A DNA stretch of 64,000 nt from Octopus vulgaris (taxonomy: Eukaryota). The notes beneath the pieces are model-generated. The model was given only the letters and a program-made list of their open reading frames with translations, made no database searches and had not been told where the DNA came from. Shown in pieces: positions 7,710-57,144 of this stretch. The translations under genes and the position numbers were made by a program. The stretch lies in NCBI GenBank assembly GCA_951406725.2, contig OX597818.1, positions 77,934,001 through 77,998,000 of the forward strand. Reading direction: 5' to 3'. Within the stretch, counting starts at the first letter, position 1. Each line of letters opens with the position of its first letter.

Positions 7710-8960
7710 AAGTAGTGGCTGCTTTCTCGTATACGAGCAAAGCCATTGCTAGAAAGAATCATTGAAATGAGTCACTGATAATGCAAAGAAAGATTTGCAC
7801 ATTTCATTGCATAATGCTCAGTTGTGCAGGCTGGCAGAAGGAACAGGTGCAGAAGGAACAGTATGAAGTCTTTTGACATGTATTTTTAATCCTCCAACTG
7901 AACGGTACACCTTTCCACAATTTACAAGGGGTCGATTCCTCTGACTTCTTTGATGGCTGACCAGGCCTGCATGACTCAAGCATTTCCTCCTATAGGTCAC
8001 ACACGTAAAGAACAACACTCCTTCATTTTCTATTGGTTCATTCTTTCTAAGCTTTCTCTTGATCTTCTCGTTCTTCATTCTCTCTCTTTCGAACTCTCTC
8101 TTTCAATCACTGTGCACTCTTTTTCGTCCTCCATTTCGGTCTTGTATGTATGTATGCATGTATGTATGTATGTATTTGAATTTTTTGTCTGTCAAAACAG
8201 CTATAAGGCAGTCTTTGAACCTCATTTTTGGTTTATGTGATGGCCTTTTACAATCTTCCATCCCACCATGCAAAAGTTGCTTAGGAAGTCTTTTATCATT
8301 CATTCTCACCAGATGTTCACCCCCACCTCAAACAACTTTGCAGAATGATCGATTTCACACTTCTGCTATAACTTATCTCAAGTACCTCTACATCACTGAT
8401 CGCCATTCTCCGATTTATCCCAAGAATTTTCTTAAGACAACATTGATGGAATCGTTCCAAATGCCTCAAATGCTTACGATAAACAACTCATGTTTCACTT
8501 CCATGAAACAATGATGGCAAACCACAAGTTCTATAAACCATAACTTTAGTTTGGGTAGATATACCATGGTGTGACCAGAGCCGCTTGTCAAGCCTACAAA
8601 GGCACTACTAGCTTTGCTGATTCCATACGAAATTTCATTATCAAAATCAATAATGCTCAGAGTACTTCCTAATTTGGTTATGACTTCTAACATTTGACTA
8701 TATACAGTTATAGAAGGCACCATATAAAGCTTAGATGGAGAAGGGTGGTACATCATAACAGTTTTCTTCGAGTTAATTGTAAGGCCCAACACTGTACATG
8801 CTGCAGAAATCCCATTCATCATGAGTTGCATATCTTCCTGGGAATGTGCTAACAGGTCACAATCATCTGTATACAAGAACTCAATGATGTGAGAATGAAG
8901 AACTTTCGTTTTAGCACAAAGTCTTTTGAGATTGAAAAGTTTTCCTCGCTGTCCTATATC
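7710..8960 (-). mobile_element. RTE-clade LINE 3' portion (RT C-terminal half plus C2H2-like fingers), degenerate
   Basis: YTDDCDLLAHSQEDMQ...GLTINSKKT, GSTLS, KASSAF, RMNDKRLPKQLLHG...RFKDCL, terminal CGKVYRSVGGLKIH; flanked by (TACA)n at about 7655-7709 and 8969-9040. Confidence 0.9.
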
Positions 8961-39480: not shown

Positions 39481-40283
39481 TAAAGCTGCGCGCGCACACA
39501 CTAACACACACACACACACACACACACGAGCCGGTATAAATATTGGTTGGTTGATTCTCCAGTCGTGTTTCACATAGTATATAAAAAAAAAGTTAGCATA
39601 AAAGGCACAGGATGAGTATACATACGAGGCTTAGAGACAGGCAGTGATAGATAACCTTATGAAAAATATACATTTTCAATGAGATTTTGTAGGGATATGT
39701 TTCCGACGATGTTGATGGTAATTATGTTGATAAAATGCATAAAAAATAACATATGTAGTGCAAATATACAAATGAGAAATATATTTTATTCAATTTTATT
39801 TTGAAATAATCAACATTTTTCTATTCAAATTTTACTATTTATTTCATAATTTTCTAAGAGTAGTAAGAAATTGGGTCAAATTGTAATTGTTGCATTTACG
39901 CCATATTTCTTGACAAAATAGTACCATAAGAATTTTCATCACATAAGGGGCAACAGTCTAGTGCGTGTGATGCAGAATATAATAAAATTATATATAATTA
40001 AAAAAGACACACAAACAAATGACATCTCACTCTCATATTAATGAGAAGCTGTCATTTATGTTGCGCCAAATTATCATGCGATTCAAACCTCCATTACTAT
40101 TAGTTATATAGCAACCTGGCACACTCGCGTAAATATTGACACGAAAATACATCGGTGGCACTTTTTACCAATATTCTATCGTATTTTAAATCTAGCACCG
40201 TTTCTTCGTATACCGTAATTCCCAACCTTTTCACAACCCGTTTATTTAAATGAGTTTTCTCAAGGACCCCTTTTAATATGCTT

Positions 40284-40284
40284 A

Positions 40285-40322
<38 letters not shown>

Positions 40323-40761
40323 TGTGTGTGTGTGTATGTATGTATATGTGTGTGGGTGTTGCATACATGTGTGTACATATATATATGCATGTGTGTGTAT
40401 ATATGCATGTGTGTGCATATATGTGTGTGTGTAAATATATGTATATGTGTATATATACGTATGTGTGTATATATGCGTATGCGTGTATATATACGTGTAT
40501 ATATATATGTATGTGTGTACATATGTGTGTGTATATATATGCGTGTGTATATATATATATGTGTGTATATATATGTGTGTGTATATATATATATATATGT
40601 GTGTATATATATATATGTGTGTGTGTGTATATATATGTGTGTATATGTATGTGTATATATATGTGTGTGTGTGTATATATGTGTGTATATATATGTGTGT
40701 ATATATATATGTGTGTGTGTGTATATATATATGTGTATGTGTGTGTGTGTATATATATATA

Positions 40762-40792
<31 letters not shown>

Positions 40793-40807
40793 GCATGTGT
40801 GTATATA

Positions 40808-40852
<45 letters not shown>
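40284..40852. repeat. Alternating purine-pyrimidine (TA/TG) low-complexity tract
   Basis: Direct reading. Confidence 0.98.
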
Positions 40853-40856
<4 letters not shown>

Positions 40857-42230
40857 CAATCTTACTTAGAAATGGATGTGTGCGTTCCGTCATATAATAA
40901 ATTAGTAAATAAATAAAACATATGCATATATACATACATGTATGTACGTGCCTACCTCTACATGTATATATATATATATGCATATATGGGTACAGGACAC
41001 AAAAAAACGTCGAACACAATGAGAAACGAAAACATAAACACAAAACCAGGGAAATGGACATTTTTCTTAAACAACGAAAAAATAGAGTACAGGACATACA
41101 AAACAAGGAAAATTCCCCTTCTTCAGTCGCCTTTGTTTCATCTATTCCACGTTCGAAGGTCAAGGCGATACATGACTTTAATGAAACAATCCTTCCCGCG
41201 AAAATCAAATTAAATAAAATTTGAGATTTTTTTGCGGAGGGGTAAAAATAGTAACAAAAACAGGACAGTAACGACAGTACAAAATATAAACAGTAAAAGA
41301 CAGGACAAGGAGAATAACAGTAACACAAACAAGAAGGGCTGTTAAGCCGAACGTGATAAAATTTTTTACGAACGCTATGTTTTGAGAACGGTGAGGGAGC
41401 AACAGAAAGTGCCGTCTCTACTTGAAGGTAGCAAGGACAGAAAGACAGTAGCAGAGTTCTCGTCGCGGGTCAACGACGGGAGGGAGGAGAAGGAGTAAGA
41501 GAAAGGGAGAGAAAAAAAGAAATGGTTGTAGAGAAAAGAATGAAGAATGAGAGAGAGAGAGAGGGAGAGACAGTAAGGTAGAAGAAAAGGAACGCCAAAA
41601 GAATGAAGGCTGAGAAAGGGAGGGGGAGAGAAAGGTTAAGAGTGCGCATCATTATTAATATTAAGAACAATCTTACTTAGAAATGGATGCGTGCGTTCCG
41701 TCATATAATAAATTAGTAAATAAATAAAACATATGCATATATACATACATATATGTACGTACCTACCTCTACATGTATATATACATGCATATATGGGTAC
41801 AGGACACCAAAAAAAACATCGAACACAATGAGAAACGAAAACATAAACACAAAACCAGGGAAATGGACATTTTTCTTAAACAACGAAAAAACAGAGTACA
41901 GGACATACAAAACAAGGAAAATTCTCCTTCTTCAGTCGCCTTTGTTTCATCTACTTTACGTTTCGAAGGTCAAGGCGATACATGACTTTAATGAAACAAT
42001 CCGTCCCGCGAAAATCAAATTAAATAAAATCTGAGATTTTTTTTGCGGAGGGGTAAAAATGGTAACAAAAACAGGACAGTAACGACAGTACAAAATATAA
42101 ACAGTAAAAGACAGGACGAGGAGAATAACAGTATCTCGTTTGGCTTAACAGTCCTTTTTGTTTGTGTTACTGTTATTCTCCTTGTCCTGTCTTTTACTGT
42201 TTATATTTTGTACTGTCGTTACTGTCCTGT
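40853..42230. mobile_element. Non-coding element: about 470-bp direct repeats (40853 and 41664), purine-rich spacer, terminal fold-back (42133-42230); Penelope pseudo-LTR or retrozyme-like
   Basis: AGAACAATCTTACTTAGAAATGG starts both repeats; 42137-42230 is the reverse complement of about 41260-41352; hammerhead-like parts on the minus strand. Confidence 0.7.
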
Positions 42231-43045
42231 GTGCATATATATATATGTATGTATATGTGTGTATGTATATGTGTGTATATATATGTGTGTATATATGTGT
42301 GTATATATGTATATATATGTGTGTATATATATGTGTGTATGGATATGTGTGTATATATATATATGTATGTGTGTATATATATATGTATGTATGTGTGTGT
42401 ATATATATATGTATGTATGTGTGTGTATATATATATGTATGTATGTGTGTGTATATATATATGTATGTATGTGTGTGTATATATATATGTATGTATGTGT
42501 GTGTATATATATATGTATGTATGTGTGTGTATGTATATATATATGTATGTATGTGTGTGTATGTATATATATATGTATGTATGTGTGTGTATGTATATAT
42601 ATATGTATGTATGTGTGTGTATGTATATATATATATGTATGTATGTGTGTGTATGTATATATATATGTATGTATGTGTGTGTATGTATATATATATGTAT
42701 GTGTGTGTATGTATATATATATGTATGTGTGTGTATGTATATATATATATGTATGTATGTGTGTATATATATATATGTATGTATATGTGTGTATATATAT
42801 GTATGTATATGTGTGTATATATATATATGTACATATGTGTATATATGTACATATGTACACATATGCGTGTATGTGTGTATATGTGTATATGTGTTTATAT
42901 GTGTATATGTGTGTATATGTGTGTATATGTACATAGCTGTATATATGTACATAGATGTATATATGTACATAGATGTATATATGTACATAGATGTATTCAT
43001 GTACATATATGTATACGTATATATGTAAATGTATACGTGTATATG
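42230..43045. repeat. Alternating purine-pyrimidine tract with about 26-30-bp higher-order unit
   Basis: (ATATATATATGTATGTATGTGTGTGT)n-like. Confidence 0.97.
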
Positions 43046-44329
43046 TTAACTTGTAGCTAAGCCCGGTTTCACTCGGTCTGTTTGGATGATGTGGCTGTAA
43101 TCGTTTTCGGTTAGGCCTAATCCATAACAGCGTTTCTCAACCTTATCATTTCGGGACCCCTGTTTCGTTTGGAGCCTCCAGCTGTATGAAAATTTCCTGA
43201 TTCCCCACTCCCTTCTCAGAAAACAGCTTCAGGAGTTGTGAAGAACTTAGTCTGTTTCCGAGAACTATTTTATAGGATCTCTGTCTAATCATTAAAACAT
43301 TGATTTAATTATGAACATAGAAAGAAATTATACATTAATCCCTATTTTTTTAAGCAGTTGTATTCGTAAAAATGTTATTTGCGGAGAGCAGAAATTGGAA
43401 GAAGATATATGAAATGGACATGTGTGTAGTGTGTATGTGTGTGTGTGTGTGTGTGTGTGTAGTGTGTGTGCGTGCTTGCGCGTGTGTATGTGAAGGAGAA
43501 AGAGGGTGAGAAAGAGAGATAGAGTGAGTGAGTGGAGGTGTGTGTCGTGATGACTGACGTCTTTTAAGGTATACACTCATACATAGAAAATGTGAGGTCA
43601 TCGTATAAAATTTTTACGATAGTTGATTTATGGAAAACATTACGTTAAATTTTTGAAATGCAAATATGTGAATGAAAATTAAGTTTCAGACCTCTGCATG
43701 GTAGCTAGACCCGGTAGAAATAGCAGCCAAATCTCCCTCAAAACACCCTACTATACTAATCCGACAATTCTGCTTATTATGTAGTTTTAGTGAGAAACTG
43801 TAACTAAAAATTAAGCTTATTAACCTCACATAGAGGTGAAAGAAGGGAGACACCATAGTGAAAGTTTTGGCTGACTGTCATCTTGTACTCACCTTGTTAC
43901 TAGCGAAATGGTATATGCCGGCTGCGTGAGCAACTGGTTGTTTTAACGGCGGAACAAACAGGGGAAATCCATTAGAAAAGTTTTAAACGATTTTCTCGGT
44001 AAGTATGGGGGCTAGGAAAAAATACGAACTGCATTCCAATCTATGCACTCGTCTCCACATGTATGTCATTGTCTTGCACTATTTTATTCCTTTGGAATAA
44101 TACCAGTGATATCTTCGAAACATGTGTCGGAAGTAAAAGAATTTGAATAACACATGCGTTTAACTCCATTTATTTATTTATATATATTAAACAAAATATT
44201 TCACGTAAACCCGACGTTTCTACCCATAAAGATAAGGAGTTACAACCTGTTTACTTGTGTTATTGTTTGCTACCCTGGTAACTATTTATCTATTTTTCCG
44301 TGTTAATTGTTAACAAGGGAAAAATTCAC

Positions 44330-44899: not shown

Positions 44900-46075
44900 T
44901 ATTTCTTATTTTTTCTGTAGTTTCATCTCAGAGCTGCGGTCCTGCTGATGCCCCGCTGTTTTGCTACAATGTTATTACTGAGAGCCTCCTCCAATATGTG
45001 GCACTTGGTGAGGAATGGAGTTTGATGTAGCTACCCTCATTTGCACCTATTGACGTGATGTAGGTTCATCTGAGACTCTCGACAGAAGAGGTCGAACCTT
45101 GATTTAAAAACGCCTACATTTACTTTGTGCTGCTTCCCCAGGCTGTTTAGGAGAATATTAAAAAGCCGTGGGCCCCTGAAACCTAGGCTGTTGCAGTAAC
45201 TGGTCCTGAAGCGCGATCGCGTTGCTGGGATCTTTGTCACTATGCAGCGTCGTCCCGTTCTGGCATTGGTGTAACTTTCAGCGCCAAAATTTGGCACAGT
45301 TCCTTCCAGGATCTTCCTGATATATATTACTGCATACCTCTCCCGTTTTCTTTCCACTGTGTAGAGTCTTAGCTGTTTCAGCCTTTCTCAGTTGCTGAGG
45401 AGTTGCAAAGATACGATCTTCGTGAATCTTCTCTGAATTGCTTCAAGGTCCGCTGTTAATTTCTCACTGGTGGGGGACCATAGCTGCGAACAGTAAGCCA
45501 GGCGGCTGAGGACAAATGTCCTCCAGAGGAATATCATGGTTTCCTTATCTCTGGTTCTGAATGTTCTCAGGATCCATCCAGCCAGTCGTCTGCACTCTGT
45601 TGCCATCCTGGTTATGTGCACTTGGAAAGAGCAGGGCTTGGAATTTTTCAGCATTAAACTGATTATTATTATATTATTCTGTAAATTGGGTCCAACTCCT
45701 GCTGCAGATGTGCAACATTGCTGGGGTTCTGTATTTTCTGCGAGATTTTCGTATCATCTGCGTAGCTTGCAAGGGTGGCTATCCGGGCACTTGAGGGCAT
45801 AGCTGAGAGGGCCACTATAAAAAGCAGTGGTCCGATGACAGTGCCCTGTGGAACACCGCTCACTATTTGTGTTTTCATAGAGGTGGCTACATTAGCCACT
45901 ACTGCCTGACTTCTATCTTTCAGAAAGTCATGTAACCACTCTCCAAGTTTTCCAGCTATGCCGAGATCACGCAGTTTGTGGCATATCATACCGTGATCCA
46001 CCTTGTCAAAAGCTTTTGCAAAATCAAGGTATATTACGTTCACATTTGGAAAATGAAGGTATATTACGTCCACAA
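44900..46075 (-). mobile_element. CR1-group LINE, 5'-truncated RT and 3' end
   Basis: VIYLDFAKAFDKVDH, SGVPQGTVIGPLLF, YADDTK, WRTFVLSRLAYCSQLWSP, LEAIQRRFTK, GPRLFNIL. Confidence 0.93.
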
Positions 46076-46099
46076 ATATATATACATATATTTATATAT

Positions 46100-47769
46100 T
46101 GATGTATTTGGGGATGGTCATGTTGCCAGTTTAGTCAATAAAACACACGTTGTTGTTAATTTGCTTCAGCTTTATTTTATTTTTTACATTAATCATATTT
46201 CGACCAGAGTTCTTTCGTCACACTTCTGTGACCTCATCAGTGGTTCTTTGCTTTCTTGTTTCTTATTTGTGTGTCTTTCCTTACTACCGATCAGCCATTC
46301 CTATTGTTTGTGTCCTTATTTGCGCATGCATATACCTCTGTGTGTCTGTTTAGTGCGCGCGTGTGTGGGTGTGGGTGGGGGTGCCTGTATTATCTGTATC
46401 CTCTGTTTATACACGTTCGTTTAATTTGTTTTTAATTATTTTGTTCATGTGTTTATACCTACTTATTTTTTAAAATTCTTTCTTTTTTGAATTTAATTTA
46501 ATTTTGTTAACGTATATAGTTATTTAATTCCATTTGTTTATATGTATTGTATTATTCATATTGTTATCAGTTTACGGGGATCTTATTCTGTCATATTTTA
46601 TGGTGTGTTGGGTGTGTGTGCTAGTGTTCCATTCCAGTTTATCTTCTAGGTTTATCTTCTATTATGTGTGTAGCTTCTGTAATTTGTCTAAGCGTGGACA
46701 AGATTTTAACTTCTATGTGTGGACAAGATTTTAACTTCTACGTGTGCCCCGTGTTCCTGCCCGACGTGCTGGTATAGAACCGATGAGTTCTTCTCTTCCT
46801 TAAGTTCCTTCCAATACTCATTTATCCGCTCTCCTATGCTCCGTGCTGTTTCCCCTACGTACGCCGCTGTCGTGTTACTGCACCTCCCTCTGTACATCTT
46901 ATACTATAGACTACATTTCTTGCTTTACAGCTTGTTTATGGACTAAATCTACATACAGTACAGTTTTTAACAGTACAGGGGGTTCTACTAAAAGCGTAGT
47001 TTCTACCGATTAGGGATTTGATAGGGTTGCCTGGTCTTTCATCAACCTTAATTCTTAGCTTAAGTTTGTCTAGGGCCCTTCTAAAGCGGTACTCCAGTTC
47101 GCCTCTAGGGGTGGTGTCGACCAACATGAGACTCTGGTATTTGTGGCTATCATACCAAGAGTTGGCCTTCCCTATTTTCTTCTTAGTCCTTTCAATGGTG
47201 TTCCATGACTTGCTCCTATAGAGTGGGCAAATCCCATTCCTATCGTTACGTAAAGTAGTTTCGAATTTCCTCATGGCTCCTTTGTATACTCTGATCCTTT
47301 CTTTATGTCTGTAACCTGAGAACTGCATGCGGTGAACGAAATGTTGTATGTATCTCTTTAACTCTGTAGGGTCGCACATGCGGGACACATTTCGCATTTC
47401 TCTGACAAGGTCTGCCATCAATATATTGAATTTGGCATTGTCCGCGATAGCTGAGTTCCGGCGGATCAGGTATCTGGAGGCCATATGTTTGGCATAGTGT
47501 GAATGAAGGATTCGGGTTTTATTATTCTCAGTTTCCAGCCAGAGTTCTGTATCTAGTACTGGTAGTCTATGGTTAGGGTGTTTTATAGGGTAGTCTTTCT
47601 TGACCTTAATACCCTGGTGGATGGAGTTAGCTCTTTGCTGGATGCTCTCCATAGTATTAGTTTCAATTTCTATTTTAAGAGTACTCTCTTGTGAGGGTGC
47701 CTTTACCACTACGTTGATATCATCGACATAGTGAGAGTACATGTTCACGAGTATGGAGTTCTGTGCCAT
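46100..47769 (-). mobile_element. Penelope-like element (probably Neptune type): RT C-terminal half, Cys linker, GIY-YIG, 3' pseudo-LTR
   Basis: 277-aa ORF with YVDDI, LPVLD, FSGY, CTVKNCTVC; then YVGETARSIGERINEY...LYQH; hammerhead downstream on the same strand. Confidence 0.9.
46203..46244 (-). ncRNA. Minimal type I hammerhead ribozyme
   Basis: Minus strand: ACCA-CTGATGA-G-GTCACA-GAAG-TGTGAC-GAAA-G-AA-C-TC-TGGT; intact core, 6-bp stem II, 4-bp stem I, CUC triplet. Confidence 0.8.
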
Positions 47770-48348
47770 ATGTATATATGTATGTATATATGTATATGCA
47801 TATGTTTGTATGTATAGATATATGTATGCATATATGTACGTGTATATGTGTATATACGTATGTATATCTGTATATGTATATACGTTGTATATATATATCT
47901 GTATGTGTATATACGTATGTATATCTGTATATGTATATAGGTTGTATATATATATCTGTATATGTATATACGTATGTATATATATATGTATGTATATATG
48001 TGTATATTTATATGTGTATATTTATATATGTGTATATGTATATACGTATGTATATATGTGTATATGTATATACGTATGTATATATGTGTATATGTATATA
48101 CGTATGTATATATGTGTATATGTATATACGTATGTATATATGTGTATATGTATATACGTATGTATATATGTGTATATGTATATACGTATGTATATATATG
48201 TGTATATGTATATACGTATGTATATATATGTGTATATGTATATACGTATGTATATCTGTATATGTATATACGTATGTATATGTGTATATGTATGTATATG
48301 TGTATAAGTGTATGCATATATGTGTATGTATATATGTGTATATGTATA
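47768..48348. repeat. Alternating purine-pyrimidine tract with 28-bp unit TACGTATGTATATATGTGTATATGTATA
   Basis: Direct reading. Confidence 0.97.
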
Positions 48349-51833: not shown

Positions 51834-53117
51834 TTGGGTTGGCAACTAAGTTCCCACCGATTTTTTAAATTTAAAATTTTTAAAAGGTTTAATAAAAAAT
51901 AACTACTTATTAATCATTAATGTATTCACCCTTCTTCCCAACGTTCAGCAAGATTTTCAATACCTCCTTGGTAGAAATCATCCGATTTCGACTCGAAAAA
52001 TTGATCCAACCAAGCTCTCAATTCTGTGTCAGTATTGAACGAAACTCTGCGCATAGCATTTGAAAGAGATCGAAAGAGGTGGAAATCCGTTGATGCCAAA
52101 CCAAGAGAGTACGACGGGTGTGGCAGCACTTCCTAGCCATGCGTTTGAATGGTTTCCTTGGTCATATTGGCGATATGAGGGCAGGCGTTGTCGTGCAGCA
52201 GAAGAACCCCATGCTGCCGATTAGGTTTTTTCTCTTGAATAGCCGTGTTGAGTCGTTCTATTTGTTGAACATAGAGTTCCGCGTTGACCGTTTGGTTCCG
52301 TTCAAGCAATTCGTAATGGATAATCCCTTCCCAGTCCCACCGTACGCACAACATCGTTTTACGCGGATAAAGATCTTGTTTCACGCCCGGTGTTGCTTGT
52401 TTACCGGGGCTAAGCCATTCCTTACGCTGCTTCATATTGATGTACAGGCACCATTTTTCGTCGCCAGTAACAATTCGGTAAAGAAATCGTTGCTTGTGAC
52501 CATGAGTTGAGCGGTGACGAGCAAGCAAACCAGCGGAGATGTGGTTCGTTGATTTTTGTTGTTGTCACTTAAAGCATGTGGAACCCATGCTCCATACTTC
52601 TGAACCTTTCCCATCGAGTGAAGATGCTTCTCTGTAGCAGTGTAGGAGCATTCCATTTTCTCTGCCAGTTACATTGTCGTTTGAGAAGAATTTTCGTGCA
52701 AAAATTAGTTTAATCGCTCTTGATCGAACTCAACTGGACGGTCAAAACGAGGTGCGGCTTTGAGGTCAAAATTTCCATTTTTGAACTTGGCATACCAATC
52801 ACGAGCGGTTCTTTCAGCTATGGCACCCTCTCCATACACAGCACAAATGTCGCGAGCAGTTTTTGCGGCCTTAGAACCTTGATTAAAAGCAAATAGAGTG
52901 GGGTGTCGAAAATGCTCGTTTTTCTTAACTTACCATTCCGTTTTAATGATCTGAAAATAAACAAAAAATAACTAAAAGAAAAAAAACAAAACAGAATAGA
53001 TTCCAAAATGATTCAAAAACGGAATTGTCGAAAAAAATAGATTCCAAAATTTAAAAACGCAATAAATTCCAAAATTAAAAAAAAAAAAAAACGGCGGGAA
53101 CTTAGTTGCCAACCCAA
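51834..53117 (-). mobile_element. Full-length mariner (1284 bp, mellifera-subfamily-like), transposase pseudogene
   Basis: TIRs TTGGGTTGGCAACTAAGTTCCC(A/G)CCG, TA TSD at both ends; GAWVPHAL, IVTGDEKW, HDNACPH, PHPSYSLGLASTDFHLF; frameshifts and stops. Confidence 0.97.
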
Positions 53118-57098: not shown

Positions 57099-57144
57099 AA
57101 CACAACGTTTCGGTTGATATACCCTCCAGCCTTCATCAGGTGTC
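57099..57144 (-). ncRNA. Minimal type I hammerhead ribozyme within a short repeat element (about 57028-57190)
   Basis: Minus strand: GACAC-CTGATGA-A-GGCTG-GAGGGTATAT-CAACC-GAAAC-GTT-GTGTT; intact core, palindromic AACGTT stem III, GUU triplet. Confidence 0.8.

Follow-up and report, generated by a model that had tools for sequence, protein, structure and literature searches.

The hammerhead forms nearest to the one considered here, types SGC and CSG, have been obtained from metatranscriptomes and metagenomes and not from the genomes of known organisms, as set out in the passages of Eckert et al. (2023, PMC10085705) drawn on here. Type SGC (HRIMA-1 and its variants) is active and comes from metatranscriptomes only, and type CSG is represented by two metagenomic sequences; the S-G-C order itself is thus already published, with cleavage shown. 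In the same passages block C of the hammerhead is assumed to be uninterruptible, no insertion of more than 1-2 nt being known there.

Hammerheads carried by mobile elements provide the second point of comparison. In plant LTR retrozymes the two ribozyme-bearing repeats lie 600-1000 nt apart. These elements possess true LTRs, type III hammerheads, PBS/PPT and 4-bp TSDs, and non-LTR retrozymes are defined by a type I hammerhead (bioRxiv 10.64898/2026.07.22.740005, main text). Non-LTR retrozymes and non-autonomous Penelope-like elements (PLEs) consist of non-coding head-to-tail units of PLE origin with one hammerhead each, and a circle has been proposed as the template for their more-than-unit copies (PMC4209133; bioRxiv 10.64898/2026.07.22.740005). 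A 'tail' of 30-40 bp, pseudo-LTRs, inversions and (TA)n are among the PLE traits described by Craig et al. (2021, PMC8557442), who report in the sections used here that one group of PLEs, the Naiads, is without canonical hammerheads, with only 'core' or 'half core' cases flagged.

The locus analysed here lies in a window of 64,000 nt from Octopus vulgaris (contig OX597818.1, positions 77,934,001 to 77,998,000), whose numbering is used throughout. Positions 40853-42230 are occupied by a non-coding Penelope-like element made of 1.6 head-to-tail 811-nt units, with an inverted 5′ piece and (TA)n flanks. In our main reading, to which we assign a probability of roughly three in four from sequence comparison, this partial-tandem insertion carries a non-circularly permuted hammerhead, its core opened between A9 and G10.1, that likely cuts the transposition RNA after GUA in vivo. 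The opened layout is a hammerhead variant new relative to the literature searched, the S-G-C order being known: that literature, to which subscription journals do not belong, yielded no report of a layout opened at A9/G10.1 in animals or of permuted hammerheads in Naiads. In the main text of bioRxiv 10.64898/2026.07.22.740005 'octopus' and 'cephalopod' have no occurrence, and 'permut' appears only in the title of a reference.

Anatomy and insertion context of the element

The element and its flanks comprise the following features.

40853..41663, minus strand: full 811-nt unit of a non-autonomous Penelope-like element; 3′ end at 40853, sense is the minus strand
41664..42133, minus strand: second, partial unit of 470 nt, head-to-tail (pseudo-LTR) and 5′-truncated; the junction recurs in other copies
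42132..42230, plus strand: 99-nt inverted piece of the unit, 5′ end of the element; adjacent inversions at 4/29 and 5/29 other loci
40853..40891, minus strand: 39-nt 3′ extension past the usual family end; most copies stop at unit position 40-45
40297..40852, no strand: (TA)/(TG) microsatellite flanking the 3′ end, likely target; (TA)n stands at the 3′ end in other loci
42231..43044, no strand: (TA)/(TG) microsatellite flanking the 5′ end

The repeats (40853-41322 and 41664-42133, 470 nt each) are 95.4% identical and lie 811 nt apart. An earlier note on this DNA had recognized them at about this distance; its reading of them as the LTRs of a retrozyme around a spacer has to be given up, since they are a partial tandem of one 811-nt unit and the hammerhead is not of type III. 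Two ribozyme-bearing repeats are thus shared with plant LTR retrozymes, but as a partial tandem in place of true LTRs. Any TSD would be masked by the microsatellites on both sides.

The element shows traits of a PLE insertion: a fixed 3′ end, variable 5′ truncation, inversion, partial tandem and tail. The end of the unit is joined to its start in 22 of 29 loci selected by the spacer and in 5 of 29 selected by the ribozyme. A common 3′ end falls at unit position 40-45 in 21/29 loci of the first set and at 40-42 in 22/29 of the second, (TA)n stands at the 3′ end in 21/29 loci of each set, and the 5′ ends of the family copies are variable. The 39-nt extension of the window copy agrees with the PLE tail of 30-40 bp (PMC8557442). 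Pseudo-LTR, inversion, tail and (TA)n together identify the locus as a non-autonomous Penelope-like insertion of 1.6 units with minus-strand sense and not as an LTR element. The longest Met-started ORF in the doubled unit has 100 codons, and each non-coding head-to-tail unit contains one predicted ribozyme. The element resembles non-LTR retrozymes in this organization, and differs from them in the S-G-C order of its ribozyme.

Tandem spacings in three other subfamilies (L073, L077 and L082) are 926, 831 and 985 nt. No autonomous element carrying the ribozyme of the superfamily was found among the loci scanned for ORFs; a 2,855-nt spacing at L081 was considered as a candidate autonomous partner and rejected, as it contains an unrelated RT-like reading frame, and three PLE-looking reading frames gave no Pfam hit. 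A lone S-G-C-like motif at L071 (near 3007, plus strand) is followed some 1.3 kb downstream by a reading frame for a Penelope-type RT; the two may form an autonomous element or be mere neighbours.

The window also contains a canonical type I hammerhead at 57139 (core, minus strand) in which CUGAUGA is followed by an additional A, as typically seen in Penelope pseudo-LTRs, and a second canonical-looking type I hammerhead at 46240 (core, minus strand). The latter is downstream of a broken RT/endonuclease-like frame (46700-48021, minus strand), which gave no Pfam hit. Fragments at 1532-1927, 52136-52564, 45391-46091 and 8469-8960 we take to resemble mariner-type transposases and non-LTR reverse transcriptases.

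Strand order and predicted fold of the ribozyme

The minus-strand motif is present as it was first quoted, with GUA, a 7-bp stem I, CUGAAGA and a GAAA within the supposed loop I. Its order, suspected from the start to be pseudoknotted and outside types I-III, is S-G-C and none of the circular orders of those types (C-G-S, G-S-C, S-C-G); the core-only pattern GUH, GAAAC, CUGANGAAG, in that order, has 3,141 matches in the genome versus 49 for the reversed-pattern control. A decayed type III hammerhead is rejected because GAAA is absent downstream of the core in all 36 aligned family copies, as had been remarked for the window repeats. The first look across the 2.8-Gb genome gave 1,514 motif candidates, and the cleavage triplets among 78 copies are GUA (39), GUU (20) and GUC (19). 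With looser patterns the S-G-C order turns up in additional families unrelated to this one; among them are 419 genomic matches, against none in the control, to a motif taken from the 3′ end of octopus Naiads already in print. A scan of 39500-43500 with Rfam returned no hammerhead family among 145 matches to E = 10, and none at gathering score.

The two ribozyme copies of the window are laid out as follows, all on the minus strand.

41924..42053: ribozyme copy 2 (predicted fold, supported by pair counts in family copies)
42053-42049: copy 2, strand u
42048-42006: copy 2, hairpin P8
42005-42001: copy 2, stem II 5′ strand a (GACGG, one mismatch)
41998-41991 and 41950-41943: copy 2, P4 and P4′
41984-41980: copy 2, stem III
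41979: copy 2, H17
41978-41972 and 41942-41936: copy 2, stem I and stem I′
41969-41965: copy 2, stem II 3′ strand b
41964-41960: copy 2, GAAAC
41935-41929: copy 2, core
41928-41924: copy 2, strand c (AGGAG, one mismatch with u)
41978..41979: predicted cleavage site of copy 2 (GUA/U), by hammerhead analogy; family 5′ ends cluster just after it
41115..41242: ribozyme copy 1 (predicted), layout as copy 2; a, u and c without lesions, GAAA short of one A
41168..41169: predicted cleavage site of copy 1, by hammerhead analogy; family 5′ ends cluster just after it

The extent originally given, 41915-41985, is too short for this fold. The loss of one A from the GAAA of copy 1 was correctly noticed (41154-41151 reads GAAC), and with lesions in both copies the window ribozymes are probably impaired.

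Pairing was assessed in 18 copies hand-chosen to span the subfamilies, weight being put on pair types because relatedness inflates the shuffle control. In this set 15 of 33 pairs show two-sided change and 92% of the cells are paired, against 41-48% in slid-partner controls. Stems I and III hold as they were proposed, and both covary (4/7 and 3/5 pairs changed on both sides). Beyond an internal loop stem III is continued by helix P4, directly adjacent to stem I; two-sided change is found in 4/6 pairs of P4 and 85.7% of its cells are paired, and in a free search 82 of 114 copies reach 7 bp, with the control also high (64/228). The closing pairs of P8 are changed on both sides in 2 of 4 cases. 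Strand u is directly 5′ of P8, which in turn ends directly on strand a with no gap, stems I and II are separated by a linker of 2 nt, and nested folding alone returns P8, P4 and stem III.

The consensus of a K-turn has a bulge of 3 nt and, next after it, tandem G-A/A-G. For a possible turn of this kind between stem III and P4, both GA steps occur in 33 of 37 Naiad-type copies, and AA replaces one GA step in the subfamily of the window.

Stem II is the part of the fold in which we depart from the earlier note, which had paired CCUUC with GGAG. That GGAG is private to copy 2: the other 35 aligned copies are without it and nearly all have GGGG, and the variant base in strand c of copy 2 (AGGAG) is the one that had prompted the proposal. 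The c:b stem shows zero two-sided changes, and the upstream GAAGG is favoured as the partner of b. At least 5 Watson-Crick pairs between b and an upstream strand are possible in 51 of 78 copies (0.9% of control windows), mostly 25-26 nt before the cleavage base, and at least 4 with the strand after A9 in none of the 78. Positions 1-5 of a:b are paired in 98-103 of 105 anchored copies, the first pair (G10.1-C11.1, beside G12) being G-C in 100 of them. Inside the superfamily a:b is nearly invariant, with one two-sided change at the sixth pair, so that the stem II partner has to be chosen by P7 and by comparison with other families. Pairs of P7 (u:c) are present in 63-72 of 74 copies, and a double change from U-A to G-C in one subfamily breaks both a bulge-free c:b and a c:d hairpin. 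In the unrelated Naiad-type family the strands of a:b differ in sequence from those here, and at each of six positions 32-37 of 37 copies are paired; the first pair is G-C in 27/37 and G-U in 5 more, and c:b breaks at position 3 (paired in 5/37; 2/37 in the other register). Families H, I and J have, by eye, yet other a:b sequences that open with G-C or G-U next to G12. These comparisons make it likely that stem II is formed by the upstream strand a (GAAGG) and strand b before GAAA, and that the partner first chosen was wrong.

A strict free search for the four-way junction is weak evidence, with 42 of 95 copies against a background of 14%; in the older families it finds 3/21 in H, 0/4 in I and 0/11 in J, and in the Naiad-type family 6/19 against a background of 17%. 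Three further pairings were discarded: a closing helix of upstream GGAAGG and downstream UUCCUU, dropped on inspecting the aligned copies; the local c:d hairpin, of which the first pair is lost in two subfamilies; and a register pairing G8-A9 with CCUUC, which would use up core residues.

The old family H (L101-L130, L069, L070) has a ribozyme nearly identical to that of the box-jellyfish Naiad-1_Movir, with P8 capped by GAAA and P7 of up to 11 bp. Families J (L061-L068, L072, L110, L115) and I (L104, L119, L120, L122) are old as well and have, by eye, the S-G-C order and long u:c helices, yet they fail the strict junction search.

The alternative that survives best, which we nevertheless regard as unlikely, is a plain type SGC ribozyme, as drawn in the earlier note: CCUUC/CUUC and the strand that directly follows the core would form stem II with one bulged A, and a:b with P7 would represent an inactive state or a switch. 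The 4-bp c:b helix it requires, two of its pairs G-U, is formable in 65 of 78 copies and in 18/18 in a separate count, and a family H copy (L123) has a c:b stem of 7 bp; PLE hammerheads often have a single additional base after A9 (PMC4209133; also at 57139 in the window), and cleavage by type SGC is established (Eckert et al. 2023, PMC10085705). But half of the four c:b pairs are G-U and none changes on both sides, c covaries with u instead, and c:b fails in the Naiad-type family and, by eye, also in family J and in coral and crustacean Naiads; where c:b fails, a:b holds with different sequences.

In the opened hammerhead that we prefer, a would pair with b so that the first pair of stem II is the usual G10.1-C11.1, and c, which follows A9, would pair with u, P8 standing flush between u and a. 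P7 and P8 would form a second stack that crosses the stem II/III stack and the core as a four-way junction. With P7/P8 removed and A9 joined to G10.1, the cyclic order of types SGC and CSG would be obtained, P4 being the counterpart of the 'I' helix of type SGC. The core would be opened at the step of block C where PLE hammerheads already tolerate one extra base (PMC4209133).

Compared with type SGC as described in the passages cited above, the window form has the same strand order and core, a similarly short linker between stems I and II (2 nt, against typically 3 in type SGC) and a helix bridging the other ends of these stems (P4 here, 'I' there). It differs in that block C is unbroken in type SGC, whereas here c is predicted to pair with u and b with a, the 4-bp c:b alternative being formable. 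In the predicted fold both termini exit by way of P7, at the step from A9 to G10.1, and the end that is open in type SGC is closed by the loop between P4 and stem III. Type CSG has the same cyclic order and is opened between G and C, and the window form within block C. In the PK hammerhead the strand from A9 to G12 is continuous. Its helix II is likewise replaced by a helix with an upstream strand in an active RNA, but its helix-II loop pairs with a stem-loop joined to helix I, and the scrambled S-G-C order is not described in the sections of Zhan et al. (2024, PMC11300833) used for this comparison.

Genomic 5′ ends around the predicted cleavage site

The 5′ ends were mapped in the first 100 of 562 copies matching an anchor 68 nt downstream of the site, unselected and with none dropped. 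Among these 100 copies 43 end at +1 to +67, 17 of them at +1 to +10 and 3 exactly at U1.1; before the site, 7 end at -1 to -70, including 2 at -1 to -10. The breakpoint rate drops upstream of the site by a ratio of 13.9 (p = 1e-9), and near the site the difference is 17/74 versus 2/57 (Fisher, p = 0.002). Breakpoints are also dense at +11 to +30 (19 of the first 100 copies), where RT stalling on structure could be responsible. The predicted site is crossed by 57 of the same 100 copies, so that any cleavage would be incomplete or undone again. Of the 17 near-site ends, nine fall at +6/+7 on a T, and 8 of these 9 follow a flank ending in TA or CA; microhomology may shape these ends. The AT-rich sequence before the site also offers microhomology to (TA)n, and few ends are found there.

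Genome-wide, foreign letters before U1.1 occur in 20 copies: 14 have their junction exactly there, in 4 an insert of 2-3 nt sits precisely at the site with both sides intact, and 2 have an altered triplet. A control placed 10 nt upstream gave 0 truncations in 3 matches. A control at +9 (58 matches) mixed subfamilies and was left uncounted, being superseded by the unselected breakpoint map. Both controls exclude pure (TA)n joints and cover different subfamilies. A dip of contig depth across the predicted cut, seen in four runs presumed to be RNA, was discarded, as the same dip is present in the large run X15, taken as DNA. The pile-up of 5′ ends after GUA is likely the footprint of cleavage in vivo, and the junctions and extra nucleotides fit templates that start at the cut, with occasional re-joining across it.

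Less likely again than the plain SGC form is a conserved hammerhead-derived RNA that is no longer catalytic, serving for instance as an RT-binding signal, with the 5′ pile-up produced by RT stalling. It would accommodate a core in which A9 is unlinked from G10.1 and catalysis is predicted only, the density of breakpoints across +1 to +30 and not at +1 alone, and the crossing of the site by more than half of the copies. Stalling accounts poorly for the near-site ends, however, because no helix 3′ strand lies at +1 to +9: all are at +10 or beyond, yet the 17 near-site ends fall before this and stop at U1.1. The extra bases exactly at the site argue in the same direction, as does the retention of core residues, UH triplet and G10.1-C11.1 in unrelated families while the stems vary, and the PK hammerhead cleaves with helix II supplied by another strand (PMC11300833).

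A canonical junction assembled between tandem neighbours or between two molecules, S and C coming for instance from one unit and G from the following one, is hardly credible, since the dimers in which PLE and retrozyme hammerheads often act (PMC4209133) serve where stem III has 1-2 bp, whereas here 5 bp and P4 fold locally in one unit and, despite the partial tandems of the element, the weak c:b stem would have to form over about 750 nt.

For the opened, cleaving hammerhead the following cycle can be proposed. Cleavage would yield RNAs beginning at U1.1. Reverse transcription by a Penelope-type RT/endonuclease supplied in trans would be primed by a nicked (TA)n target at the AT-rich, fixed 3′ end of the RNA. 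From cut RNA, run-off synthesis would give the short copies beginning at +1 to +10; a template left uncut, or re-ligated and possibly circular, would give copies that cross the site and exceed one unit, such as the 1.6 units of the window.

Relation to Naiads and significance

The 3′ ends of Naiads were read by eye from motif-search passages of the published consensus file, covering part of its 54 ends. By this reading the opened fold is present in Amil, Aacu, Anas, Movir-1, Obim, Ovul and one record near part 19, partially in Esco and in deviant form in Bfor, and an intact type CSG with the I helix is seen in seven ends (Nbra-1, -2 and -3, Smim and three nematode records). The opened or the intact CSG form thus appears, by eye, to stand at the end of about 14 Naiad consensus sequences in print that were reported to be without hammerheads. 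Within the subset of the 54 ends viewed the fold is absent from CGi, Omin, Adux and Skow-1. The 3′ ends of Naiad_CGi and Naiad-1_Skow (PMC8557442 File S5) have a mutually similar GC-rich motif with no hammerhead core, possibly another structured RNA. The end of the ctenophore Naiad_Bfor in the same file has a:b, stem III and a P4 of 13 bp, with a stem I of about 2 bp and a long insert.

Naiads, in the portions of PMC8557442 considered, show (TA)n targets, 5′ truncation with inversion, partial tandems and a 30-40 bp tail, as the octopus family does. The window element differs in having no ORF, which in Naiads combines an N-terminal GIY-YIG with the RT. Its link to them is the ribozyme fold and the (TA)n target, which may point to descent of the window family from a Naiad. 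Extension of 20 Naiad-type loci by 4.2 kb upstream gave short remnants and no Naiad ORF.

Somewhat less firmly than the reading of the window element, we consider it probable that Naiad-type PLEs of cnidarians, nematodes, arthropods and molluscs use non-circularly permuted hammerheads, and that many, among them non-autonomous copies by the thousand in this genome, use a seventh wiring in which a four-way junction splits A9 from G10.1 and the cut made in vivo is recorded in genomic 5′ ends. If true, this would break the assumption of an uninterruptible block C, which caps the hammerhead forms at six, and would offer a possible answer to the apparent lack of hammerheads in Naiads. The breakpoint cliff ties the cut to the RNA that is actually reverse-transcribed and so bears on the role of PLE hammerheads. 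Because current descriptors are blind to such an order, ribozyme counts in animal genomes are likely too low, and non-circular permutations would move from environmental RNA to animal chromosomes, in thousands of copies.
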